NCBI GenBank assembly: GCA_964360785.1
Contig: CAYHXX010000001.1
Span: 346,907-410,906 of the forward strand
DNA from: an uncultured Gammaproteobacteria bacterium
GTDB lineage: Bacteria > Patescibacteriota > Microgenomatia > Woykebacterales > RBG-16-39-9b
Length of the DNA stretch: 64,000 nt
Reading direction: 5' to 3'
Below are positions 2,573 to 34,055 of the stretch, piece after piece (positions within the stretch are counted from its first letter, which is position 1; each line of letters begins with the position of its first letter). Made by a program: the position numbers and the translations under genes. The notes under the pieces were generated by a model. It saw only the letters and a list, made by a program, of their open reading frames with translations. It was not told where the DNA came from and searched no databases.

Positions 2573-3701
2573 ATCTTCTTTCCAGATAATCGACCGCTGC
2601 CAGCAAATAATCTGATCCTTCGGATGAGAGTTTGACCCCCGAAAGTGCCTGGCGAGACTGTTCTAGAAGCCTCATACTCAGTTTAATACAGTAATCATAT
2701 GCCCCTGTAGCTTTCATTATTTTTCCTACTTGGTCAATTTCTTCTTTCGAGGACTGCTTGTTGCCGACAACTTTTGTTAGCAACTTTTTTTGACGAGTAT
2801 TTGCTCTCTCCAAAGCCTTTGCTAGCAGGAGAGTCTTTTTCCCTTCTTTGATATCACTATCGTTTGGCTTACCAATTTCATCTTCGCTTCCAAAAGTTCC
2901 GACAATATCATCTTGCATCTGGAAAGCTTGGCCGAAAGGAATACCGTAAGCTGTAAAGGTCTCGAGAACTTTATAATCAGCACCGGCGAGCATCGCGCCA
3001 ATGTGCAGTGGGCGCTCCACCGTATATTTTGCAGTTTTGTACTCGAGAATCTGCAAAACTTCATCCTCCGTCAAGGATTTTTTATAGCCTCCCAAAACAT
3101 CCAAATACTCACCATAGATAACTTGGGTTTTCATCTGGTCAAAAAAATACCGCGCTCGACGCAGTCTTTCCTGGGGAAAGGGAGCAGAGGTGAGCACTTC
3201 CTCGGCAAAACTTAGGGCCAGGTCCCCTGCTAGTATCGCAGACGACAAACCGTATTCTTTTGGATTTCCCTGTAATTTTCTTTGTTGGTGGGTTTTCTCA
3301 AATTGTTTGTGAGTCGTGAGTTGGTTTCTCCGCAGGTCAGAATTGTCAATAATATCATCATGCATCAAGGCAAAGACATGGAGTAGCTCCACTGCCATGC
3401 AGGCGTAGAGAATACTGTCATGGGCCCGACCACCAGAAGCTACATAACCAGAGTAAACAAAGGCTGGCCGGACTCTTTTTCCACCGTTGAGAGAAAAGCG
3501 AATGATTTCATCGACCAAAGCTGCAGCCTCTGGATTTATTTCAGTGGCTTCTTTCTTTTTTTCTTCGAGAAAGAGGAGCAGTTGTTGGTCAAACTCTTGT
3601 CGGAACCACTCAAGATAGTTTTCAGCATCTAGTCGTTCTTTGTTTTGAAATTCGCTGCCGAAACCAGAAACAAAAGGCTGTAAATTTGGAATTTCTTTCA
3701 T
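2565..3701 (-). CDS. Polyprenyl (geranylgeranyl/farnesyl) diphosphate synthase
   Basis: Two aspartate-rich motifs: LMHDDIIDNSDLRR (FARM) and FQMQDDIVGTFG (SARM). Confidence 0.8.
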   Translation of the reverse strand: MKEIPNLQPFVSGFGSEFQNKERLDAENYLEWFRQEFDQQLLLFLEEKKKEATEINPEAAALVDEIIRFSLNGGKRVRPAFVYSGYVASGGRAHDSILYACMAVELLHVFALMHDDIIDNSDLRRNQLTTHKQFEKTHQQRKLQGNPKEYGLSSAILAGDLALSFAEEVLTSAPFPQERLRRARYFFDQMKTQVIYGEYLDVLGGYKKSLTEDEVLQILEYKTAKYTVERPLHIGAMLAGADYKVLETFTAYGIPFGQAFQMQDDIVGTFGSEDEIGKPNDSDIKEGKKTLLLAKALERANTRQKKLLTKVVGNKQSSKEEIDQVGKIMKATGAYDYCIKLSMRLLEQSRQALSGVKLSSEGSDYLLAAVDYLERRFN

Positions 3702-3757
3702 ATTACTAAGGAGAAACTATAGTCTTTTTTACTCCTATTTTCAAGAAATCGGTTTGT

Positions 3758-4126
3758 CTAGAAACGATAAATACCCCACTTACCCGTAATTTCTTCCTCA
3801 GCAAGTATTTCAACTTCCAAACCAAGATTCCTTAATATTTCGACAATTGTCTCTGTAGAACAATTCGTTTTACAGAGAACTACGAGCTGGTTCAAGTACA
3901 ATTCCTGAATTCCAATACAAGAAAAATTACGTCCAAACTCTTTTGTTAAGGCTCCCCAAACTGGGCCAAATAGATACTCTTCTAAAGTTTGTGGGTTCTT
4001 TTTCTTTACCCTAGCCGCATCTTGCTCGGAGTTGACAATGCCCCGAGGATAAGAATCGATCTTTAACTGAATTCTCTTTAATTTTTGGTTTTTGAAGACC
4101 AAACTATAGTCAAAAAAAGTTTCCAT
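3758..4126 (-). CDS. Hypothetical protein
   Basis: ORF with host-like composition and no recognisable motif. Confidence 0.35.
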   Translation of the reverse strand: METFFDYSLVFKNQKLKRIQLKIDSYPRGIVNSEQDAARVKKKNPQTLEEYLFGPVWGALTKEFGRNFSCIGIQELYLNQLVVLCKTNCSTETIVEILRNLGLEVEILAEEEITGKWGIYRF

Positions 4127-9671: not shown

Positions 9672-11930
9672 ATGCCTATAAGCACTCTAGCGTCGATAAC
9701 CACCTTTATTGTTTCCATCTTCCTTGGACTATTCATAATTTATAGAGATCCAAAAAAGTTAACTAATGTAACATTTGGAGCTTTCACAATTTGTGTGGCA
9801 TTTTGGGTGATTACTAATTTCTTTACAGACATAGCCAAAACAACAGATGTAGCCACTTTCTGGGCAAGAATGACATTAGCTGCTCCAGCCCTCATGCCCT
9901 TTCTTTTGTTAATGTTCTCTAAGGTTTTCCCTAGGCAAGAGGCTACCCTAAATAAAGGTTTCTGGTTTTTACTCCTTACCCCAGGTCTTATCACTTTAGT
10001 ACTCACCCCAACAGTATTAAACATTGAAAAAGTAAGCTTTACAGCCACTGGACAAGAACTTGTTGTTGGCCCCTTATATACACCCTTTTTCATTTATTTT
10101 GCCATATATTTAATTGGTACATTCATTAATCTATTTAAAAAGTTTAAAAGATCAACTTCTTTGGAAAAACTGCAAATCCAATATCTTATTTTCGGGTTGG
10201 TAACAGCTTCAATCTTCGCCTTGCTATTAAACGTAATTCTACCTATATTTGGATTATCCAACCTGGTAAGTTTGGGTGCTTTTTCCTCTGTCTTCATTGT
10301 TGGATCAACAGCTTATGCAATAGTGAAGCATAGATTACTTGATATCAGACTAGTTGTCGCTAGAACGGTAGCTTATTCATTATTGCTAGTTATACTTTCT
10401 GTTTTCTACATAGGTTCTACAGTTCTTCTTACAAACTTTCTGTTCAAAACAACTACATCTAGTGCCCAACTATTGCTCTACTCTGCCCTCACATTAGTTG
10501 TTGCCTTTACTTTTCAACCTTTGCGCTCATTCCTTGAAAAATCTACTGACAAAGTATTTTTTAAAGGTGATTATGATTTTAATAATTTACTTTCCCAACT
10601 CACAAAAATCATTGCTGAAACAATATTGATTGATGATATCGCCAATAGACTACTGACAAAACTTCTAGCAGACATGCGTATTACTCGAGGAGCATTTGTT
10701 CTAACAGATCAAGGTAAGATTTTCGTTTCCGAGACTCAAGGTTACAAAGAAGAACCGAAGTTTTCCGAAAAAGATGTTTTTAGCTTACAAGCTCTCGATA
10801 AGAATCTGATCTTCGAGGAGCTAGAAGAGGGTTCTGGTAAAGAGTTGATGCGGAAGCTGAATGTTACCGCAGTAATCCCTTTGAAAACCCAAGTTGACCA
10901 TGTTGGGCTTTTGTTGCTTGGAGAAAAAGCTTCGGGAGAGATTTACTCCGCCAAAGACATCAAGGTCCTGGAAATTTTCTCGCCTGAGGCAGCTATTTCT
11001 TTTGAAAATGCCAAAAGTGTTGAAAAAATCCGCCGCTTCAACATTACTCTTAAAGAACAGGTCGATCGAGCCACTCGCGAGCTGCGGAGCGCCAATGAAC
11101 AGCTCAAAGACCTGGATCGGCTCAAGGATGAGTTCCTTTCGATTGCCAGCCATGACCTGCGTACCCCAATGACCGCGATCAAGGGCTATCTCTGGATGGC
11201 AATCAATGGTCGAGCTGGAAAAATCGAGAACCAAGCCCTCAAGCGCTATCTCGATATCTCTTACTCCAGTGCTGAGCGTATGATCCAACTGATCAATGAT
11301 CTGCTCAATGTCTCGCGTATCAAAGCCGGGCGAGTCCAGATGATCTTTGAAGAGATCGATATCAAGACAATAATAGACCAGGTTTTTGCCGAGATTATGT
11401 CCAAAGTTACTGAGAAAAATATCTTGCTAAAATATGAAGGTTCTGCCAACCTTCCCAAACTTATCCTCGACAAGCAACGGTTCCCAGAAATATTGCAAAA
11501 CTTGATCGGCAACGCGCTTAAGTTTACCCCTGAGAAAGGCAAAATCACGGTCACTGCCAAAAGGTCAAAGGAAGAAGGTTTCATCGAGGTTGCAGTAACT
11601 GATACTGGAGTTGGGCTCTCCAAGGAAGATGCCGGTAAGCTTTTTGAAAAATACGGCCGTATTGAAACTTCCTACACCAAAGCCAAGGAAAGTGGTGGTA
11701 CTGGTCTAGGATTGTACATCACCAAAACCTATGTGGAACTTCATGGTGGCAAGATCTGGGTTGAGAGTGAAGAAGGCAAAGGTACGAGCTTTATCTTCAC
11801 TCTTCATGTGGCAGACCCCGAAATGATCAAAAAAATGAATTCCGATACCCAGCCAAAACAAGTTGCTCCAAACGTACCACAAACAAACAACAGCACTGTC
11901 AAAGAAATGGTTACCTCTTCCACCACATGA
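9672..11930 (+). CDS. Sensor histidine kinase with polytopic membrane N-domain
   Basis: HisKA H-box FLSIASHDLRTPMTAIKGY. HATPase_c motifs (NLIGNALKFT, DTGVGL, GGTGLGL). Confidence 0.8.
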   Translation: MPISTLASITTFIVSIFLGLFIIYRDPKKLTNVTFGAFTICVAFWVITNFFTDIAKTTDVATFWARMTLAAPALMPFLLLMFSKVFPRQEATLNKGFWFLLLTPGLITLVLTPTVLNIEKVSFTATGQELVVGPLYTPFFIYFAIYLIGTFINLFKKFKRSTSLEKLQIQYLIFGLVTASIFALLLNVILPIFGLSNLVSLGAFSSVFIVGSTAYAIVKHRLLDIRLVVARTVAYSLLLVILSVFYIGSTVLLTNFLFKTTTSSAQLLLYSALTLVVAFTFQPLRSFLEKSTDKVFFKGDYDFNNLLSQLTKIIAETILIDDIANRLLTKLLADMRITRGAFVLTDQGKIFVSETQGYKEEPKFSEKDVFSLQALDKNLIFEELEEGSGKELMRKLNVTAVIPLKTQVDHVGLLLLGEKASGEIYSAKDIKVLEIFSPEAAISFENAKSVEKIRRFNITLKEQVDRATRELRSANEQLKDLDRLKDEFLSIASHDLRTPMTAIKGYLWMAINGRAGKIENQALKRYLDISYSSAERMIQLINDLLNVSRIKAGRVQMIFEEIDIKTIIDQVFAEIMSKVTEKNILLKYEGSANLPKLILDKQRFPEILQNLIGNALKFTPEKGKITVTAKRSKEEGFIEVAVTDTGVGLSKEDAGKLFEKYGRIETSYTKAKESGGTGLGLYITKTYVELHGGKIWVESEEGKGTSFIFTLHVADPEMIKKMNSDTQPKQVAPNVPQTNNSTVKEMVTSSTT

Positions 11931-26241: not shown

Positions 26242-26384
26242 ATAATATTTCCTGTTACAACAACCTAATATAGGAACTGGTGACCCCGGCGGGAGACAGT
26301 CCGATCCGATCGGACTAATCATTAAGAAATGAGCGAACCCAAGTGGGTTCAAACCAATGGCCAGAGATCATAAAAACAAAAAGA

Positions 26385-26414
26385 CAGGCAAAGATTGCCT
26401 GCTTTCTGTTTTGG
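26385..26414. terminator. Bidirectional intrinsic terminator
   Basis: Stem CAGGCAA/TTGCCTG with loop AGA, flanked by an A-run upstream and CTTTCTGTTTT downstream. Downstream of the XRE gene on the minus strand. Confidence 0.5.
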
Positions 26415-26499
26415 TGACCCGAACAGTACACAGTTCGAACCGGTCGTGGCTTTCTGGGACAGGATTATACAGTCTTACTGTGAAACTTCAGATCAGGAA

Positions 26500-26727
26500 C
26501 TATAAAAGTTTTGTCTTTAACACCTCTGCAATTTTGCGCAGTTTATCGTACGATGTATTTATTTCCCCACGCTCAATTCTGGCATAGTATGTGACATCCA
26601 TTCCGGATTTTTCGGCTACCTCCGCCTGAGTTAAACCAGACTTTTCTCTGGCGTCTTTTAGTTTATTGCTTAAATCTTTAGTTATTTTGTCGTTTTGATC
26701 GCTATTCATATGTGTATAGTATAACAC
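26500..26727 (-). CDS. XRE-family helix-turn-helix transcriptional regulator
   Basis: GLTQAEVAEKSGMDVTYYARIERGE is a canonical HTH_XRE. 75 aa. Confidence 0.75.
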   Translation of the reverse strand: MLYYTHMNSDQNDKITKDLSNKLKDAREKSGLTQAEVAEKSGMDVTYYARIERGEINTSYDKLRKIAEVLKTKLL

Positions 26728-26812
26728 TTAAGGAAAAAAGTGACTTATTCTTATTTTTATTTTTATAACTCATTTCACTAAAATTCGTAAACCGTTTTGA
26801 ATTAAATAGCCC

Positions 26813-26842
26813 TTGACTTTTGACTATAGGTTTATGTATACT
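26813..26842 (+). promoter_or_regulatory. Promoter TTGACT-18-TATACT with tandem TTGAC motif upstream of the 230-aa cargo gene
   Basis: TTGACT 26813-26818 and TATACT 26837-26842. RBS AAGGAG 26874-26879. Divergent from the XRE gene. Confidence 0.45.
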
Positions 26843-26884
26843 TTGCCTCAATAAATACTGACCCATCAAGCCAAAGGAGCTGCC

Positions 26885-27577
26885 ATGCAAAGGATTCGCT
26901 TGTACTGCGAAGGTATCAAGCCCGTAATGTTCGACCCAGCGTCTGAAGCATTCTTGGACAAACTGGGTACTCGTGTTCGACAACAACCAAGAACTGATAT
27001 CAATGTCGAAGAAGAGGCCAGAAGCAGAGTTCTCGTTACTGAAAGAGATTACCTGTATTTCCCGCTGGGCTACCTCTTCTCGTGCTTGGTTGAAGCGGGA
27101 AGGTTCGTCAAATACGAAGGGAAGATGAGCCTGTCAACTGCCGATTCTACTCGTCTCACCATGATCCTCACTCTCGAAGGCGAACAGGTAATTCTGGGGT
27201 TACGGGATGGTAATGGCACTTTCCAGCCACTATCCCCCGATGAATGGACCGTGGATAAGCGACGTGGGGTGAACAAAGTCACCAAAGCCCCTGTTCGTAT
27301 CATTCGTCCCAAGATTGCTCGTTGGGGTTTCGAGGTGGAAGCGGTTTTCGATAACGATCGATTCGCTCTCAGTAAACTGATCGAGCTCTTTCGGGTGGCA
27401 GGTTTGGGGATTGGAATCGGAAGCTTCCGGGCAGAAAATAAAGGCGAGTTCGGAATGTTCGAACTCAAGGAAGTAAAGATCCTCGAGGAATGGAAGCCAG
27501 AGGAGACGGTGAAGGTCGTCAGCTTGGTCGAGACCAAACCGACTACGAAACGATCAAGGTCAAAGGCTAAGCAATGA
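26885..27577 (+). CDS. Hypothetical 230-aa protein with C-terminal glycine-rich loop (RAMP-like?), GC-rich cargo gene
   Basis: Strong RBS and promoter. GC-rich with coherent codon usage. GLGIGIGSFRAENKGEFG glycine-rich loop. No catalytic motif recognised. Confidence 0.5.
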   Translation: MQRIRLYCEGIKPVMFDPASEAFLDKLGTRVRQQPRTDINVEEEARSRVLVTERDYLYFPLGYLFSCLVEAGRFVKYEGKMSLSTADSTRLTMILTLEGEQVILGLRDGNGTFQPLSPDEWTVDKRRGVNKVTKAPVRIIRPKIARWGFEVEAVFDNDRFALSKLIELFRVAGLGIGIGSFRAENKGEFGMFELKEVKILEEWKPEETVKVVSLVETKPTTKRSRSKAKQ

Positions 27578-27707
27578 CGACAACATGAGCAAGGATGCTC
27601 ATACTGAAGGCAGACCCAGATTGGGAGCTGTGACTCTGCACTGCACTCCTGTGCTTTGCTTTGTTCTCTCTAGCTATCCATTCTGTTGCAGTCTGTAGCA
27701 CAGGGCT

Positions 27708-27760
27708 GGGGGTTCTTCGACTTCGGTTGTCGAACCCCTGCCATCTTTTTTATACTTTTT
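27708..27760 (+). terminator. Intrinsic terminator after the 230-aa gene
   Basis: GGGGGTTCTTCGAC / GTCGAACCCC stem with loop TTCGGTT, then TGCCATCTTTTTT. Confidence 0.4.
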
Positions 27761-27819
27761 CCTACTGTTCAATTTTGTAATCAGCACTTTTCAGCTGAAA
27801 TAGTTCAAGGAGAAGGATC

Positions 27820-29628
27820 GTGAACCAAGGGGAACATCTTGGACCGCTCACCTTCGAGGAGCTGTCCTCTGCCTTTCCAAGGCAGTATCGGCAAATGCAC
27901 CCCAACCAGAGGGAGGCATTCAGACGAATTGCCCAAGCAAGGGGTTCGGTTACCATTGAAGCCCCAACCGGGAGTGGCAAAACCGCAATTGGCTACACTG
28001 TTCTGCGGGCGCTTGCCGCCAGAGGTGAAGGGCCTCTGTTCTATGTCGTGCCCAATAGGGCATTGGTCGGGCAGGTGCACACTTTGCACCGCGACCTCGT
28101 TGAGGTGTACGGACGGCACGAGTATGAGTGTCTCTACTTCCCGGAGCAAAATTACCGGGCGGATGAGATACCGTGCTCTCTGCTAACCGACTGTGCTCAC
28201 CGGGTTGACCAGGAAACTGGGCAAACCTTTGGACGGGGTCGACGCTGCCCGTATTACTGGGCAAAGTATCAGGCGAAGCAGAGTCAGATCGTTGTCTGCA
28301 CCATGGCTTTTTACCTCTTTACCCAACTGTTCAGTCGGGAATGGGGGGAACCTGCTGGCCTGGTGATCGATGAGACCCACCAAATTGCCAAGGTGTTCCG
28401 CAATGCCCTGAGTTTCGAGATCTCGGACTACCACCTTGAAAGTGCGATTCGGCTTCTCGAGCCGTTTGCCCCAGAAGGTGCGGCTGGTCTCGAGGTGTTT
28501 CTTGAGACGATGAACCGGATCGTGAGAATCAAACGGTCCAACACGCCAAGTTTGCTTGAAGACACCGAGATTGAAGAACTGCTGATGACGCTGATGCTTA
28601 TCGACCACAACAGGTTGCGGCAAGGGTTGTCAACGGCAGTTACGTCGGGTTCCATTGATGTCAGTCAGCACGTGGAGGTGCTCACCCGAGTCGACCGGAT
28701 CGTGCGAGATCTTGTACGTTACCTGCGTGCGTTTGAGTTCTCGCTACCGACTGAAGATCGTCACCCTCTTAACTACACCTTCGCCTATTACGACAGGGAG
28801 CAGGTAGTGGGTAGGCGAGTCAACAACCGGCTTGTGGTCAAAGCCTATCACGTTGCTCCGCTGGTAAGGAGCCTGTTGTCTTCGAGGATGACACTTGCCT
28901 ACTCGGCGACAATTGGGGATGAGAACATCTTTGCACTCGAGACAGGAATTCGTCAGCCGACCTACCACTTTGGCTCGGACTTCCCCAACGAGAATACCCG
29001 GGTGTTCATGCCAACCAATACACCGAACCTGGCAATGCAGGCTCGAGGTCGGAGGGATCTGGCTAACACCATCCGAAGGATAGCTCGGGCTTGCCGACGT
29101 TTCAATGACGCTGGGCATCGTTGCCTGGTCGTGGTGGTTTCTGATGCGGAGAGACAGAGGTTCCTGCGAATGGCGGCCGAAGAAGGTGTTGACGTCGTTT
29201 CTTATGGCGACGGTGTTAGCGCACGTGCTGCTGCTGAAAGGTTCCGTGATCGTGGCGAGGGTGGTGTGTTGTGTGGGACAGTGGCCAACTACGGGGAAGG
29301 GATTGACCTACCCGATGGTAAGGCCCCGGTGATTTTCTTCCTCCGCCCGGCGTACCCCTCTCCGAATGATCCGGCAACTCAGTTCGAGGAGCGCCGTTTT
29401 GGAAGCAGGCGCTGGTCGGTTTGGAACTGGCGTGTGATGATGGAGGCTCTCCAGGTCCGTGGTCGCAACGTGAGAAGCACAACGGATTTGGGTGTGACCT
29501 TCTTCATGTCGCAGCAGTTCCGCAGATTCCTCTACGGATCCCTGCCAAACTGGCTGCAGCCTGCCTATAGGGGAGATCTCACCTTTGACGAAGGAGTTGA
29601 GGAGGCGTTGGAGGTGTTGGAAAGATAG
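27820..29628 (+). CDS. XPD/DinG/Rad3-family Fe-S ATP-dependent DNA helicase (GC-rich cargo gene)
   Basis: Walker A EAPTGSGKT. Four Cys between motifs I and II (ECLYF, PCSLL, TDCAH, RRCPYY with the CPY signature). DExH box VIDETHQ. C-terminal helicase_C_2-like VANYGEGIDLPDG. GTG start with AAGGAG RBS. Confidence 0.7.
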   Translation: MNQGEHLGPLTFEELSSAFPRQYRQMHPNQREAFRRIAQARGSVTIEAPTGSGKTAIGYTVLRALAARGEGPLFYVVPNRALVGQVHTLHRDLVEVYGRHEYECLYFPEQNYRADEIPCSLLTDCAHRVDQETGQTFGRGRRCPYYWAKYQAKQSQIVVCTMAFYLFTQLFSREWGEPAGLVIDETHQIAKVFRNALSFEISDYHLESAIRLLEPFAPEGAAGLEVFLETMNRIVRIKRSNTPSLLEDTEIEELLMTLMLIDHNRLRQGLSTAVTSGSIDVSQHVEVLTRVDRIVRDLVRYLRAFEFSLPTEDRHPLNYTFAYYDREQVVGRRVNNRLVVKAYHVAPLVRSLLSSRMTLAYSATIGDENIFALETGIRQPTYHFGSDFPNENTRVFMPTNTPNLAMQARGRRDLANTIRRIARACRRFNDAGHRCLVVVVSDAERQRFLRMAAEEGVDVVSYGDGVSARAAAERFRDRGEGGVLCGTVANYGEGIDLPDGKAPVIFFLRPAYPSPNDPATQFEERRFGSRRWSVWNWRVMMEALQVRGRNVRSTTDLGVTFFMSQQFRRFLYGSLPNWLQPAYRGDLTFDEGVEEALEVLER

Positions 29629-29757
29629 GGCGATCGTGAACCCAGGGTTATAGCTACTCTCTTGAGTACGCCGTAACGACCCTGGGTTTTTCATTTCTAG
29701 ATTTACCAGCTGAAAGGCTGGTTTTTTGTTGATTAAATCCTAAAGCGCAGGGTAATA

Positions 29758-30639
29758 TTACTCTTTTCTGACTATTGTCCAGATATTATCACTACCCAAC
29801 CCTTCTTCGGTTGCTTGCTTTAAAGTTGTTAGTAAAAACGTTATTTCTTCGAGGTCGTAAGAACTGTCAAGTTGTTTTTTAATGTATTTGCCAATCTGGT
29901 TTAATTTTTGTTGGTTGGGAAAAATTAGCAGAAGAATAGGGAATTTTCTGTCCAAGCCGCTAAATCTATGTTTCCCCCCTTCACTTTGATTAAATTTAAT
30001 ATATTGGTCTACTTTATACCTGAGAGCATATCTTGGAACACCTGGGTCAAAGAGTTGCAGAAAGTAAGTTTGAGAGCTATTGTCTTCTTGATCAGGATTA
30101 ATTAATTTTTCAAAGTAAATATCTGGAATAATTTCCTTGATCTTTTCAAAATCGTCTTCTTTGTATAAATCCATCTTTTCAGTTATCCAAAGTTCTGTTT
30201 TTGTAGCGAACTGATACTCTATGTTAGTACTTTTCTTTTGTTTTTCCTTGAGCTGGATATAGAAGTCAAAGAGGCTGATGCAGTGATCAATAAAAGTTTG
30301 GGAGGCGTGTTTATCCTCATAGAACTTTTTAATAAGCTTAAAGTCCAGTTTTTCATTATCTGCCTGGTAAGCTTCACCCTTTTCAAAACGTGCCCATAAG
30401 ATGCCGTTATTCGCCAGGTAATAGATGGCAGGTTTGGTATTTTCGAGTAGCTTGTGGGAATATATCCTGCCTAAATAACCTTTTTCCACTAAATCTTTAA
30501 GCCAGACGTTAATTCTTTTTGGATCCTTGTGGTCAAGAATCCTTTGTATTTGTTTCCGGTTAATAAACCGAAACCTGTAAACAAGATCAACTATCTCTTT
30601 TTGTTTTTCAGTTATCTCGGGACGTTCTTTGTAGTTCAT
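29758..30639 (-). CDS. Replication-relaxation family protein (winged-helix N-domain)
   Basis: N-terminus ITEKQKEIVDLVYRFRFINRKQIQRIL matches the replication-relaxation (PF13814-like) pattern. Sits beside the palindromic ori-like site. Confidence 0.45.
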   Translation of the reverse strand: MNYKERPEITEKQKEIVDLVYRFRFINRKQIQRILDHKDPKRINVWLKDLVEKGYLGRIYSHKLLENTKPAIYYLANNGILWARFEKGEAYQADNEKLDFKLIKKFYEDKHASQTFIDHCISLFDFYIQLKEKQKKSTNIEYQFATKTELWITEKMDLYKEDDFEKIKEIIPDIYFEKLINPDQEDNSSQTYFLQLFDPGVPRYALRYKVDQYIKFNQSEGGKHRFSGLDRKFPILLLIFPNQQKLNQIGKYIKKQLDSSYDLEEITFLLTTLKQATEEGLGSDNIWTIVRKE

Positions 30640-30849
30640 AAGATCATTCCAGTTTATTAATAGTTATTTAATTGGCAGATTTCTAGATTTAGGACAGGAG
30701 GTTTATTAGTTGGGCAGGGAAACTTAAAGGAGCAGAGGTTTAGGGGATTATACACATTTACTCAGCAACATTACTACTTCTCTTCCTTTTACCTTGTAAA
30801 AGGGTAAAGACCGGAAATTAAAATTCCTTTAATAAACCTAATATAAGCT

Positions 30850-30904
30850 CGTACGTAGCCACGACCCGTGTCCTAGACAGTTAGGACACAGCCCATGCGT
30901 ACGT
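30850..30904. promoter_or_regulatory. 55-bp imperfect palindrome; putative recombination/oriT/operator site
   Basis: CGTACGT-(11)-GTGTCCTA-(6)-TAGGACAC-(8)-CGTACGT. Followed by AT-rich iterons, with ATATGTATAT at 30938 and 30961. Confidence 0.45.
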
Positions 30905-30986
30905 GCGAACTATTTTTACTAATTGACAACTATACACATATGTATATATAATATATACAGATATGTATATGTAACTTGCCTAACTC

Positions 30987-31316
30987 TTGGATATGAAAGT
31001 ACTAGATTCGGAACAATTGGAAATTAGACCTAAACAACGAGAATTTAAACTCCTAGAACAACAAGATGTCTACGAAAACCTCAATCAACATCTTTCCGAA
31101 CAAGAAAAGGAACAAAGAATCATTCTCGAAGCTCGAGATATCTTAGGAGAAGCTGCGGAAAACCTAACTGATGAGCAAATTTGCAATTTAGTAAGTGAGA
31201 TTCAATATCTGGTTGATACTTGGTTAGAGGAATTTGAAACAAAGGTTTATGGGGGTAAGACCTTAAGTGAGTTACTACACCTAAATTATCATGAACACAC
31301 CGTTTCCAGCAAATAA
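30987..31316 (+). CDS. Hypothetical acidic protein upstream of and overlapping the recombinase (possible directionality/accessory factor)
   Basis: TTG start. Overlaps the recombinase start by 26 nt. No motif recognised. Confidence 0.35.
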   Translation: MDMKVLDSEQLEIRPKQREFKLLEQQDVYENLNQHLSEQEKEQRIILEARDILGEAAENLTDEQICNLVSEIQYLVDTWLEEFETKVYGGKTLSELLHLNYHEHTVSSK

Positions 31317-32838
31317 TATTTCAGAACCAAGAAAAGCTGTTATCTATATCCGAGTTTCTTCTGAGGAACAAGTAGAAAACTTTTCTTTGGGAACACAGGA
31401 GGAAATATGCCGCAGAGATGCGAAATATAAAGGTTATGAAATAGCGGAAGTATTTAAGGAAGAGGGTCGCTCAGCAAAAACTATTATTGGAAGGCCAGTG
31501 CTACTTGAAATGCTCGACTTTTGCAGAAAAAACAAGAAAGATCTTCAAGCGGTTTATGTTTACCGACTTGATAGATTATCCAGGCAAACTTCCGATTACC
31601 TAGCAATAAGAAAAAGGCTTGCCGACTATAATATCGCTATTCTTTCCGCAACTGAACCAACAGGAAATTCACCAACAGAAAAATTACTTGAAACTGTTCT
31701 GGCAAGTTTTGCTCAACACGATAATGACGTGCGAAGTGAAAGAACGAAAAACGGTATGCGAGCAAGGTTTTTATCAGGCCTGATTACAAACAAGTTAACC
31801 GCTGGGTATGTTAATCAAGGTGGCTATGCTATTAAAGATTCGGAAAAGTTTGAAACTATTAAAAAAGCTTGGGACTTAATGGCAACGGGAACAAAGAGTT
31901 TAAGAGAAATAAGAACTATTTTAAGTTGCTGGGGAGTTGAGATAAAACCGCACGCGATTCACGCAATGTTCCACAATAAGTTCTACATGGGCATATTAAG
32001 CTCTCCAAAATACCCAGAGGAGGTTCGTGGTCAGCACTCTCCTATGGTTACTGAAGAGCAGTTCTATAAAGTACAAGCAATTTTGGACGGTCGCGATACA
32101 AACAGGTTGGTTATGCCACGGAAAAGCAGAGATAACAAAGACTTTCCTCTGAGAAGGATCGTTAGATGCGGTAGATGTGGCACTCCGTTTACTGGAGCCA
32201 AAACCAAAGGGAGAAGTGAATACTATTCATATTATTTTTGTCGAAAAAGATGTGTTAATACTTCGGTGCCAGTTGAAACTTTAGACAAGTCATTAGGAAA
32301 CCTGCTCCAAATTCTTAACCCTACTGAAAACGGAATAAAACTTTACTGCAACGCCCTTATCAAAACCTACAACAAGAAAATGTTTCGACTTGAGAAAACT
32401 AAGAATGGAGCTGACGAGGAGATCAAGAAGCTTTTTGGACTCCGACAGACTTTAGTTGAAAAAAACCTAGCTGGAACTTTTTCAGATGAGATCTTTAAAG
32501 AACAGAACGCCGTTATTGAAGAAAAACTAATAGCTGCTCAAGCCTCAAAAAATGACGCTCTCATTGATAAGTACGATATCGCCGCAATTGTAGCCTTTAT
32601 CGAAACTAAACTAGCCGATATTGCCCAAACCTATTTTAGCTCGACTCTTAGCCAAGCTCGCTGCCTTCTCGGTTCGATATTTCTCTCGGGATTGAGTTGG
32701 GACTATCCTGGTTGTTCGAACCGCGGTATTAGCCCGATATATCAAGGTATTATTGATGTTGAAAGTAAGGGTGTTCCCTTTGGTGACCCCGGCGGGATTC
32801 GAACCCGCGATCTCTTGGATGAAAACCAAGTATCCTAA
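31291..32838 (+). CDS. Large serine recombinase (integrase)
   Basis: Resolvase catalytic domain AVIYIRVSSEEQ, recombinase domain and zinc ribbon CGRCGTPF...CRKRC. The ORF reads through into the tRNA-Glu gene, so the last about 19 aa are tRNA-encoded. Confidence 0.8.
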   Translation: MNTPFPANNISEPRKAVIYIRVSSEEQVENFSLGTQEEICRRDAKYKGYEIAEVFKEEGRSAKTIIGRPVLLEMLDFCRKNKKDLQAVYVYRLDRLSRQTSDYLAIRKRLADYNIAILSATEPTGNSPTEKLLETVLASFAQHDNDVRSERTKNGMRARFLSGLITNKLTAGYVNQGGYAIKDSEKFETIKKAWDLMATGTKSLREIRTILSCWGVEIKPHAIHAMFHNKFYMGILSSPKYPEEVRGQHSPMVTEEQFYKVQAILDGRDTNRLVMPRKSRDNKDFPLRRIVRCGRCGTPFTGAKTKGRSEYYSYYFCRKRCVNTSVPVETLDKSLGNLLQILNPTENGIKLYCNALIKTYNKKMFRLEKTKNGADEEIKKLFGLRQTLVEKNLAGTFSDEIFKEQNAVIEEKLIAAQASKNDALIDKYDIAAIVAFIETKLADIAQTYFSSTLSQARCLLGSIFLSGLSWDYPGCSNRGISPIYQGIIDVESKGVPFGDPGGIRTRDLLDENQVS

Positions 32839-32856
32839 CCACTAGACGACGGGGCC
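32781..32856 (-). tRNA. tRNA-Glu (anticodon UUC), CCA encoded
   Basis: Folds as a cloverleaf: acceptor GGCCCCG/CGGGGTC, anticodon stem CTTGG/CCAAG, loop TTTTCAT giving anticodon TTC, T-loop TTCGAAT. Similar to E. coli tRNA-Glu. Confidence 0.85.
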
Positions 32857-32884
32857 ACAAGTTATTTTATTTTTAAACCGGCGG

Positions 32885-32925
32885 ACCGGACCCGGGATCT
32901 CTTGGATGAAAACCAAGTATCCAGT
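32885..32925 (-). pseudogene. tRNA-Glu fragment (D-arm to anticodon arm copy), remnant
   Basis: GATCTCTTGGATGAAAACCAAGTATCC is identical to the internal part of the adjacent tRNA-Glu. It lacks a proper T-arm and acceptor stem. Confidence 0.4.
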
Positions 32926-33104
32926 CCTTCTTCAGGAATGAATGCGAAGCATTTGCCTCACTAGCCAACGGGTCCAAGAACCAAGAGATTATACACAAAA
33001 ACTGAACCTAATTCAAACCCAAGAAATTCTTGACAATACTTGACAGACTGGTGTAATCTTTCTCTAAGGAGTGCTGCTCAAAATTTGCAGTTCAAAAATC
33101 TTAA

Positions 33105-34055
33105 ATGCCCGAAGAAACAAACACTTCAAACCCAACTAGTCCTACATCACCGATAGGTTCTGCACCTTCAGGTTCAGTAACCGAAAGTCCGGCGCCAACT
33201 TCTCCTACAACACCAATTGACACTAGCGTAAGCCCCATACCAAACCCAATGGCTTCTCCGGCTTCAGAACCTACTGTCACCGCAGCACCAATGCCGACAA
33301 CACCAGACCCAACACTTATACCTTCCACTCCAATGGAAGCTTCGCCGGTGATGCCAACGGTTTCAACACCCGTAACTGATACCCCTGTTGGGGTATCTGC
33401 GCCAGTAACAGAAACGCCAACACCTGTTGTACCTGAACCAACATCAGCGGAAACTACCCCTGTACCAAGGGTAGATAAACCAGTCTGGGCCAATGAACAA
33501 CCAACACCACCTATGGTAACTACCCCAGAATCAGTAACACAGCCTGTTTCTGTCCCAACACCTGAACCAACAAACTCAGTACCCACCGAAACCATACCAA
33601 TCACTACACCAATCGAACCAACTCCAAACCCAATTGAGACTGTGACAACTCCAGAGCCGCCAAAAATGCCTGAAGTCCCAGCTGTAGAAACACCAGCTCC
33701 GACGCCAGCACCTGCTATGGAACCACCAACACCACCCGCTGACAGTGACAACAATGGCCCTGCCTGGCTCCGAACTGATTCTCAAGCTCCTGCAACGCCA
33801 GAACCGGCTCCGGCAACTGCAGAATCAAGACCTGATCTTTCAAACGCACCGCTGCCATGGCAAGTCCCAAGCGAACAACCTGCAGCTGGAAACACACCGG
33901 CAGCAAATGCAGGGGGAGCAGTTGCAGCAACCGCAGCTCCAGGAGTGGAAGAGCATCACGGCTTCCCAATTATGATCTTTGTTGTACTGGTAATTGCGAT
34001 TATTGTCGCGATTGGAATATTTCTCTTTGCCAACGGCTCACTACCTGGAACGTAA
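33105..34055 (+). CDS. Pro/Thr/Glu-rich low-complexity protein with C-terminal TM anchor
   Basis: Long PT-rich sequence and a terminal hydrophobic helix IMIFVVLVIAIIVAIGIFLF. The antisense Gly-rich ORF is an artefact. Confidence 0.4.
   Translation: MPEETNTSNPTSPTSPIGSAPSGSVTESPAPTSPTTPIDTSVSPIPNPMASPASEPTVTAAPMPTTPDPTLIPSTPMEASPVMPTVSTPVTDTPVGVSAPVTETPTPVVPEPTSAETTPVPRVDKPVWANEQPTPPMVTTPESVTQPVSVPTPEPTNSVPTETIPITTPIEPTPNPIETVTTPEPPKMPEVPAVETPAPTPAPAMEPPTPPADSDNNGPAWLRTDSQAPATPEPAPATAESRPDLSNAPLPWQVPSEQPAAGNTPAANAGGAVAATAAPGVEEHHGFPIMIFVVLVIAIIVAIGIFLFANGSLPGT

Follow-up and report, generated by a model that had tools for sequence, protein, structure and literature searches.

A probable mobile element in the 3' end of a tRNA-Glu gene and the Patescibacteria family of tRNA-abutting large serine recombinases to which it belongs

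A 64,000-nt stretch of contig CAYHXX010000001.1 (hereafter the window), which derives from a 0.1-um metagenome of Hainich groundwater and belongs to an ultra-small bacterium of the CPR/Patescibacteria, carries what we consider, with a probability of roughly 0.75, to be an integrated mobile element of about 6.37 kb that is inserted in the 3' end of a tRNA-Glu(UUC) gene and is a transfer-less derivative of a conjugative-type family widespread in Patescibacteria. At the tRNA the element ends in a gene for a large serine recombinase, and both the tRNA junction of that gene and the attachment (att) site within it recur among its relatives.

The integrated element and its junctions

The first-pass annotation of the window had described an integrative element of about 6.5 kb in tRNA-Glu that was bounded by a 17-bp direct repeat. 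The repeat, TGGTGACCCCGGCGGGA, is indeed present in exactly two copies in the 64-kb window (26278-26294 and 32781-32797), with no extra match when up to two mismatches were allowed and 0 expected from 100 shuffles, and its second copy corresponds, as stated, to the tRNA-Glu(UUC) 3' end in reverse complement, CCA included, according to both ARAGORN and Rfam. The genes that had been named for the bounded segment were likewise all found, namely those for a large serine recombinase, a Replic_Relax protein, an XRE-family regulator and a DinG/XPD-type helicase, as were the palindromic site (30931-30969) and the cargo of higher guanine-cytosine (GC) content, which has 50-55% GC at 27-30 kb against about 42% in its surroundings. 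A repeat search additionally returned a third, partial copy of the tRNA end at 26412-26446 (repeat family D2) that had gone unlisted. An integrated element in tRNA-Glu thus stood up to analysis, but the 17-bp repeat is probably not the left junction of the recombinase itself, and the size of the element is 6,369 bp with the inner left junction rather than the 6,503 bp given by the 17-bp repeat, an offset of about 134 bp.

We place attL at 26410-26420 and attR at 32779-32789 because of the core that these positions share, the arm that follows the inner copy, the detached recombinase tail that begins there, and the terminator that abuts it. The features of the two junctions are as follows.

26278..26294 (+): outer 17-bp copy of the tRNA-Glu 3' end, an exact repeat, probably the relic of an older insertion
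26384..26402 (both strands): bidirectional terminator-like hairpin from a terminator scan, adjoining the inner junction on its host side
26410..26420 (+): attL core TTTGGTGACCC, the proposed real left junction, identical to 32779-32789
26413..26505 (+): detached recombinase 3' end, 30 codons (GDPNSTQFEPVVAFWDRIIQSYCETSDQEL) and a stop, aligning with attP-form tails
26421..26441 (+): element-side arm (P'), with the T-loop-like box TTCGAACC at 26434-26441
31291..32838 (+): large serine recombinase, integrated form, 515 amino acids (aa) (PF00239 5.6e-31, PF07508, PF13408)
32779..32789 (+): attR core TTTGGTGACCC, with the crossover predicted near nt 5-7 of TGGTGACCC
32781..32856 (-): intact host tRNA-Glu(UUC), integration target at its 3' end (ARAGORN; Rfam 67.3 bits)

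The inner copy is laid out as TGGTGACCC, 13 nt, and then TTCGAACC, the box occupying nt 23-30 when counted from the TGG that is antisense to CCA, and the composite GGTGACCC-N13-TTCGAACC occurs a single time in the window, with 0 expected. In the three relatives for which both ends could be bounded (L013, L051 and L072) the left junction has 8-11 nt in common with the tRNA end. The recombinase's own left junction is thus probably at 26410-26420, 134 bp inward of the 17-mer. Before insertion, the terminator at 26384-26402 would have ended the tRNA-Glu and pilin genes.

A recombinase family at tRNA genes

The recombinase has the architecture of serine integrases, with a resolvase catalytic domain (PF00239) at residues 16-160 followed by the Recombinase domain (PF07508, 2e-8) and a zinc ribbon with inserted helices (Zn_ribbon_recom, PF13408, 1e-7); in the AlphaFold model of the homologue P0054 the zinc ribbon is followed by a long helical insert with helices at 345-392 and 398-418. 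Residues Y19, R21 and S23, of which R21 and S23 are catalytic, and the zinc-ribbon cysteines C293, C296, C317 and C321 are invariant in an alignment of 30 sequences (A1). The protein matches the integrase family phrog_95 (1.4e-75), and its best NCBIfam matches, CcrB, XisF and CcrA, are all far under the cut-offs.

There are at least 950 homologues, of which the top 120 share 53-73% identity and which, where a host is named, come mostly from metagenome-assembled genomes of Patescibacteria. Almost without exception their C-termini read ...GDPxGIRT..., the sequence obtained by translating the acceptor end and T-loop of a tRNA in antisense. In a survey of 80 related loci from species-representative (GTDB) genomes, the recombinase gene overlaps an antisense tRNA gene in 68 of the 72 loci that could be evaluated, and the targets in those 68 loci represent 25 anticodons and 14 amino acids; in one of the four exceptions the tRNA is interrupted by a group I intron. 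The downstream distance from the conserved SPxYQ motif to the tRNA 3' end, measured in the 59 tRNA-abutting loci in which the search pattern matched the motif, is 50-52 nt throughout. The identity of the tRNA tends to track recombinase similarity groups, and enzymes that are 65-73% identical occupy different tRNA genes, the matching site being encoded in their own 3' ends. As a control we considered phage-type serine integrases of IMG/VR, where only three of 49 evaluable loci abut a tRNA, and these three are the most family-like. Direct repeats of at least 10 bp upstream of the recombinase were mostly not found in the relatives, whose cores are short and most of which exceed the 10-kb flank.

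Several loci have features of their own. L019 has a group I intron (3646-3873, minus strand; Rfam 105.8 bits) directly after the recombinase gene, and the intron-bearing tRNA was missed by ARAGORN. In L009 the recombinase frame (P0011, 658 aa) continues past the tRNA into a glycosyltransferase gene as an apparent fusion protein; read-through tails of this kind inflate and distort the annotated lengths of the recombinases. L096 and L097, two IMG/VR contigs of 46-47 kb that are labelled viral, encode distant homologues (30-32% identical) that end inside antisense tRNAs for Arg and His, and tRNA targeting may not be limited to the Patescibacteria clade.

An attachment site within the recombinase gene

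In the window the recombinase frame crosses the repeat and closes with 16 codons that read the tRNA gene in antisense. When this frame is joined instead to the sequence after 26420, the result is a protein of 527 aa that ends in GDPNSTQFEPVVAFWDRIIQSYCETSDQEL, and this reconstructed tail is homologous both to the tails reconstructed for L013, L051 and L072 and to the natural tails of the proteins P0054, P0103, P0109 and P0044. On the contigs L091, L089 and L090, which encode P0054, P0103 and P0109, no tRNA follows the recombinase gene, and the proteins have the conserved tail FEPxLxWLxxLMxAY. P0054, P0103, P0109 and P0044 are the unintegrated (attP) form of the recombinase, and given that such natural attP-form proteins carry the conserved tail, the attachment site must therefore lie inside the recombinase gene: the open reading frames (ORFs) of L089-L091 cross the site into the tail, and the reconstructions of four integrated elements agree with them. 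A site within the gene also explains the odd recombinase frame that enters the tRNA gene.

A 71-nt, 96%-identical copy of the recombinase 3' end (1328-1398, compared with 11411-11481) is present at the left junction of L013, in frame with the tail. This copy is a fossil attP and points to tandem or serial insertions at one tRNA.

The T-loop box, the crossover and a proposed mechanism

The T-loop box lies at nt 18-25 in all four tRNA arms (B') and at nt 23-30 in six of seven element arms (P'), the latter including, besides the window, the attL of L051, L013 and L072, at exactly this position, and the attP of L090 and L091. For the Listeria (LI) integrase, the motif of the zinc-ribbon domain (ZD) was shown to occupy positions 16-24 of the attP half-site but, shifted by 5 bp, positions 11-19 of the attB half-site (Rutherford et al., PMC3783163). 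In our family, too, the element arm has the box 5 bp more distal to the core than the tRNA arm does, which matches the published attP/attB rule (PMC3783163), on the tRNA-side half-site only. Comparison of the attL and attR cores of four elements leaves nt 3-9 as the stretch common to all. Were the box the ZD motif, its positions combined with the published ones would put the crossover near nt 6-7 of TGGTGACCC, within that stretch.

Our proposal is that the recombinase would join the attP within its own 3' frame to the 3' end of the tRNA, with the crossover within GTGACCC, and that this recombination would regenerate an intact tRNA. The integrated recombinase gene reads into the antisense tRNA (32779-32838), and its last 30 or so codons are stranded at the far junction (26413-26505) and replaced by antisense-tRNA codons; a circular form would rejoin the tail at 26413-26505 to 31291-32789. 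The zinc-ribbon domain may read the universal T-loop box TTCGAACC. Many tRNAs would be open to one clade of enzymes given that the T-loop is universal and that the short acceptor-stem core is encoded in the variable 3' end of the enzyme's gene.

Empty sites, circular forms and present mobility

A comparison with related genomes for an empty tRNA-Glu site had been proposed with the first description of the element. In the related contig L093 (UppS 67% and AAA 70% identical) a tRNA-Glu(UUC) that is identical at 74 of 76 positions lies on the same side of UppS with no recombinase and no repeat, an unoccupied target, but the far flank is not syntenic and the locus is not a strict empty site. When the flanking proteins, the pilin on the left and UppS on the right, were looked up by exact sequence, only the same occupied population was returned. 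Among relatives of UppS, L092 is too short and L094 stops before the tRNA, and among those of the pilin none is more than 61% identical and none syntenic. A metagenome scan for the exact tRNA-Glu returned one unrelated genome, L088, and none of 15 short related contigs has the terminal overlaps of a circular contig.

Several observations weigh against an element of the kind and extent that we propose. An exact empty site with conserved sequence on either side was not found, and the element is present in all five public contigs of the population that carry the left-flank gene. The reconstructed circle-form recombinase was absent from the protein collection in exact look-ups, whichever of the two boundaries was chosen, and the AlphaFold model of an attP-form homologue gives no support for a structured tail (pLDDT, the predicted local distance difference test, <50). 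The recombinase is split in one replicate assembly, which could mean decay or low coverage. A recognisable shared motif was seen on one half-site (P'/B') and none on the other, and only seven element arms were open to examination, most relatives exceeding the 10-kb flank. Lastly, the outer 17-bp repeat is longer and perfect, and could be the junction in use.

The replicate assemblies L003 and L002 of the same population have the recombinase as two ORFs (137 and 369 aa) in one and an orf230 of 161 aa in the other; coverage was only 4-6x, and these differences could be errors or real variants.

The element might instead be a fixed, immobile remnant of a decayed conjugative element that has lost its transfer genes and its ability to excise and whose recombinase is crippled by the missing natural C-terminus, a reading that we consider unlikely but that deserves serious weight. 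All contigs of the population are occupied, the circular form is absent from the records, neither the coupling protein nor type IV secretion genes are present, the recombinase is split in one replicate assembly, and the gene-splitting integrases of the SSV type are thought to be unable to excise (PMC8371274). Against a remnant, five conserved genes are all full length with the catalytic residues intact, the detached tail is still an open frame of 30 codons with the family motif, the promoter matches the consensus perfectly and is accompanied by paired operator motifs, and the core repeat is perfect.

The inner junction and the outer 17-mer

If the element were bounded as first described, 6,503 bp would lie between the 17-bp repeats, the crossover would fall inside the 17-mer, and the copy at 26412 would be an internal relic. 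This version has in its favor that the repeat is exact and unique, with 0 expected by chance, and that the stretches following the 17-mer and 26412 align without gaps at 74% identity, such that the former may be a diverged element arm. The outer 17-mer is, however, followed by a 9-bp hairpin (26298-26316) instead of the family arm, and no T-loop box was found at nt 23-30 after it. Reading through the outer 17-mer gives a 13-codon tail, GGRQSDPIGLIIKK and a stop, that lacks the family motif, in contrast to the full conserved tail obtained from 26412; the bounded relatives share only 8-11 nt with their tRNA; and the tRNA-type terminator lies between the two copies and adjoins that at 26412. A similar tRNA-end relic is present in L088, where there is no element. 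We therefore judge a boundary at the 17-bp repeat to be improbable, and retain the inner copy as the left junction of the element.

L088 (JGI Ga0210019_1003504) is an unrelated metagenome contig with a tRNA-Glu that is identical at 76 of 76 positions and without recombinase or element. About 185 nt past the 3' end of this tRNA, the tRNA end recurs as a 20-nt repeat, TGGTGACCCCGGCGGGATTC, with GC-rich hairpins after it, an arrangement that resembles the outer 17-mer of the window.

The kind of element

The gene content of the 80 related loci gave the following counts.

orf109 homologue immediately upstream of the recombinase: 74-79 of 80 loci
Replic_Relax: 53 of 80
TrwB/TraG-like coupling protein, about 870 aa: 52 of 80
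DUF2958: 21 of 80
VirB2-like pilin: 7 of 80
VirB4: 6 of 80
M23 peptidase: 6 of 80
ArdC-like protein: 5 of 80
RadC or RadC-like protein: 5 of 80

Because the coupling protein and genes of the type IV secretion system (T4SS) are among these, we consider the relatives to be conjugative-type elements. In about 52 loci the coupling protein and Replic_Relax are both found next to the recombinase, as a rule 1-4 kb upstream, and Replic_Relax may be an unrecognised relaxase or replication protein of the Patescibacteria T4SS loci.

The window element itself has neither a coupling protein nor secretion genes, and thus lacks the transfer genes of its own by which an integrative and conjugative element (ICE) is recognised. 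The bounded relatives, at 8.7-10.1 kb, are also without transfer genes, except for a 231-aa fragment of a coupling protein in L051, and share with the window copy a common layout, with XRE on the left, Replic_Relax and the orf109-recombinase pair on the right, and unique cargo between them. The element has its recombinase on the right, a core repeat of 11 bp and no transfer genes, as is expected of an integrative and mobilisable element (IME); of the relaxase and origin of transfer (oriT) of such elements, only the Replic_Relax protein (PF13814, 5e-8) and a hairpin at 30849-30908 are present as candidates. The first-pass description of a mobilisable element is consequently a fair label, given the T4SS genes in many relatives and none in the window copy.

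The alternative offered there, a satellite, is not supported, and neither is a prophage remnant with a phage-type serine integrase, which we regard as very improbable. It is true that the recombinase matches phrog_95 'integrase' and the helicase phrog_2488, and that control by an XRE-type repressor is usual in phages. Searches of the window ORFs with Pfam and PHROG, however, returned no virion or packaging gene (capsid, terminase, portal or tail), and the relatives carry the coupling protein and in some cases VirB4 and the VirB2-like pilin. Moreover, the family is nearly missing from IMG/VR, where the 80 best matches include one close relative and the others are at most 34% identical. We reject this reading because there are no virion genes and only one close IMG/VR relative.

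Equally hard to sustain is the idea that the tRNA is cargo of the element, fused to the recombinase gene, with the true insertion site elsewhere: the constant distance between tRNA and recombinase and the tendency of tRNA identity to follow recombinase similarity groups would fit it, but L093 has the 74/76-identical tRNA-Glu beside the same host genes (AAA and UppS) and L088 has the identical tRNA, in both cases with no element, natural attP-form genes occur without a tRNA, and only 8-11 nt of tRNA sequence is found at the left junctions.

Regulation, cargo and other genes

The remaining features of the window element are listed here from left to right.

26500..26727 (-): XRE-family helix-turn-helix repressor (PF01381 5.4e-17)
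26703..26718 (no strand): 16-bp operator motif copy, overlapping the XRE start
26885..27577 (+): cargo ORF of 230 aa, orf230 (phrog_4652, of unknown function, 6e-7)
27820..29628 (+): cargo helicase of the DinG/XPD family (PF13307, PF00270, PF06733), in the high-GC segment
29758..30639 (-): Replic_Relax protein (PF13814 5.3e-8), candidate replication or relaxase function
30849..30908 (no strand): GC-rich nested hairpin upstream of Replic_Relax (DNA fold -12.3 kcal/mol, z = -2.8)
30923..30969 (+): promoter and palindromic operator, with a sigma-70 promoter TTGACA-18-TATAAT at 30923-30952 (12/12 match) and the palindrome at 30931-30969
30987..31316 (+): orf109, a small acidic protein whose gene overlaps the recombinase start at its end

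The motif TATACACATATGTATA has seven matches, all of them at the XRE start or at the palindrome and promoter, where 0.41 would be expected. The XRE repressor would bind the 16-bp motif at its own start and over the promoter of orf109 and the recombinase; XRE homologues are also found at the left ends of L013 and L051. The orf109 protein had no informative family match in Pfam, PHROG, PADLOC or NCBIfam, and by its position is a candidate accessory or directionality factor. None of the element's proteins matched a canonical relaxase family, and the hairpin at 30849-30908, which was seen only in contigs of the same population, might by inference only be a candidate origin of replication (ori) or oriT.

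The cargo pair of orf230 and the helicase lies in a segment with about 10% higher GC than the rest. The protein encoded by orf230 had no match in Pfam, PADLOC or NCBIfam and no homologue in the 80 related loci, and the helicase, which matches over its full length the PADLOC model typeIV_DinG (1.6e-44; the DinG of CRISPR type IV-A, Csf4 model) as well as phrog_2488 (1e-39), has no homologue in those loci either. The helicase cargo was also considered as a defense system, but there is no Cas gene nearby, and orf230 is without a PADLOC match.

The right flank contains a tRNA-Glu-like pseudogene (32881-32976, minus strand) immediately upstream of the real tRNA-Glu. It has a 36-nt stretch that is 94% identical to tRNA-Glu, from part of the T arm through the anticodon arm, together with an insert of about 33 nt in the D region and a truncated 3' end, and was called by neither ARAGORN nor Rfam. 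Upstream of both the pseudo-tRNA and tRNA-Glu lies a promoter-like site (33016-32988, minus strand); the insertion has displaced the tRNA terminator by 6.4 kb, and transcription from this site would enter the recombinase gene in antisense. The gene adjacent to the tRNA is probably the 316-aa ORF at 33105-34055 (+), the C-terminal third of which is 82% identical to the product of the UppS-adjacent gene in the relative L092, rather than the 217-aa ORF at 33101-33754 (-) chosen by the source gene caller.

Comparison with known systems

With the large serine integrases of phages (Listeria A118/LI, phiC31, Bxb1, SPbeta) the window family shares the three-domain architecture and a short shared att core, and with the LI integrase a recognition box that is 5 bp further out in attP than in attB (PMC3783163). 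Unlike these enzymes, the family targets the 3' ends of tRNA genes and not protein-coding or intergenic sites, has its attP inside the recombinase frame, and is carried by a Patescibacteria element of the conjugative type and not by a phage. The phage integrases in IMG/VR are at most 34% identical to the window recombinase.

Insertion into tRNA genes is a textbook trait of tyrosine integrases. As in their islands, ICEs and IMEs (P4-like), the element is inserted in the 3' end of the tRNA and supplies a 3' end that keeps the tRNA intact, the integrase gene lies beside the tRNA junction, and relic repeats of the tRNA end pile up at the site. The window enzyme differs from that of P4-like elements in being a serine recombinase, with a core of 8-11 bp and an apparent recognition of the T-loop box in a shifted register.

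A large serine recombinase that serves as the integrase of a conjugative or mobilisable element is also known from Firmicutes, in TndX of Tn5397, TnpX of Tn4451 and the Ccr proteins of SCCmec. Unlike those of the window family, their targets are short dinucleotide-centred sites or rlmH; to our knowledge they have no tRNA specificity, and their att site is outside the gene.

A parallel to a recombination site within the enzyme's own gene is in the archaeal integrases of the SSV type, which are tyrosine recombinases reported to be exclusive to Archaea and to have their gene split into non-functional parts (PMC8371274). In these 'suicidal' integrases, as in the window family, integration separates the parts of the gene (PMC8371274). 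The window enzyme differs in being bacterial and a serine recombinase, and only its last 30 or so codons are swapped, the frame staying open into the tRNA antisense.

A 2025 survey of T4SSs in Patescibacteria reported a scarcity of relaxases and put forward a chromosomal, co-opted system (PMC12102498); recombinases and tRNA junctions go unmentioned in it (PMC12102498). As in the clusters of that survey, our relatives have a TrwB/TraG-like coupling protein and some have VirB4 and a VirB2-like pilin, but unlike there, 52 of our 80 loci combine the coupling protein with Replic_Relax, orf109 and a serine recombinase that abuts a tRNA. The literature that we searched did not describe serine recombinases at the tRNA genes of Patescibacteria, nor a large serine-integrase clade that is systematically located in tRNA genes with a fixed junction and an att site in its own gene.

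Implications

The analysis corrects the left boundary of the window element. Taken together, the observations allow a broader proposal, which is tentative and on balance doubtful. Were the zinc ribbon to read the T-loop, the enzymes might hop among at least 25 tRNA genes by altering only the in-gene core, and the exchange of the tail of about 30 residues might act as a state switch, with integrated and free forms that differ in activity or direction. The recombinases would in that case be a bacterial serine counterpart of the archaeal self-splitting integrases, and the same elements, with Replic_Relax beside the coupling protein, might be the missing self-transmissible elements behind type IV secretion in Patescibacteria.

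For these bacteria, the family ties transfer genes to a bounded element that is inserted in tRNA genes. The recombinases themselves constitute a natural specificity series that helps to understand, and possibly to redirect, the specificity of serine integrases.

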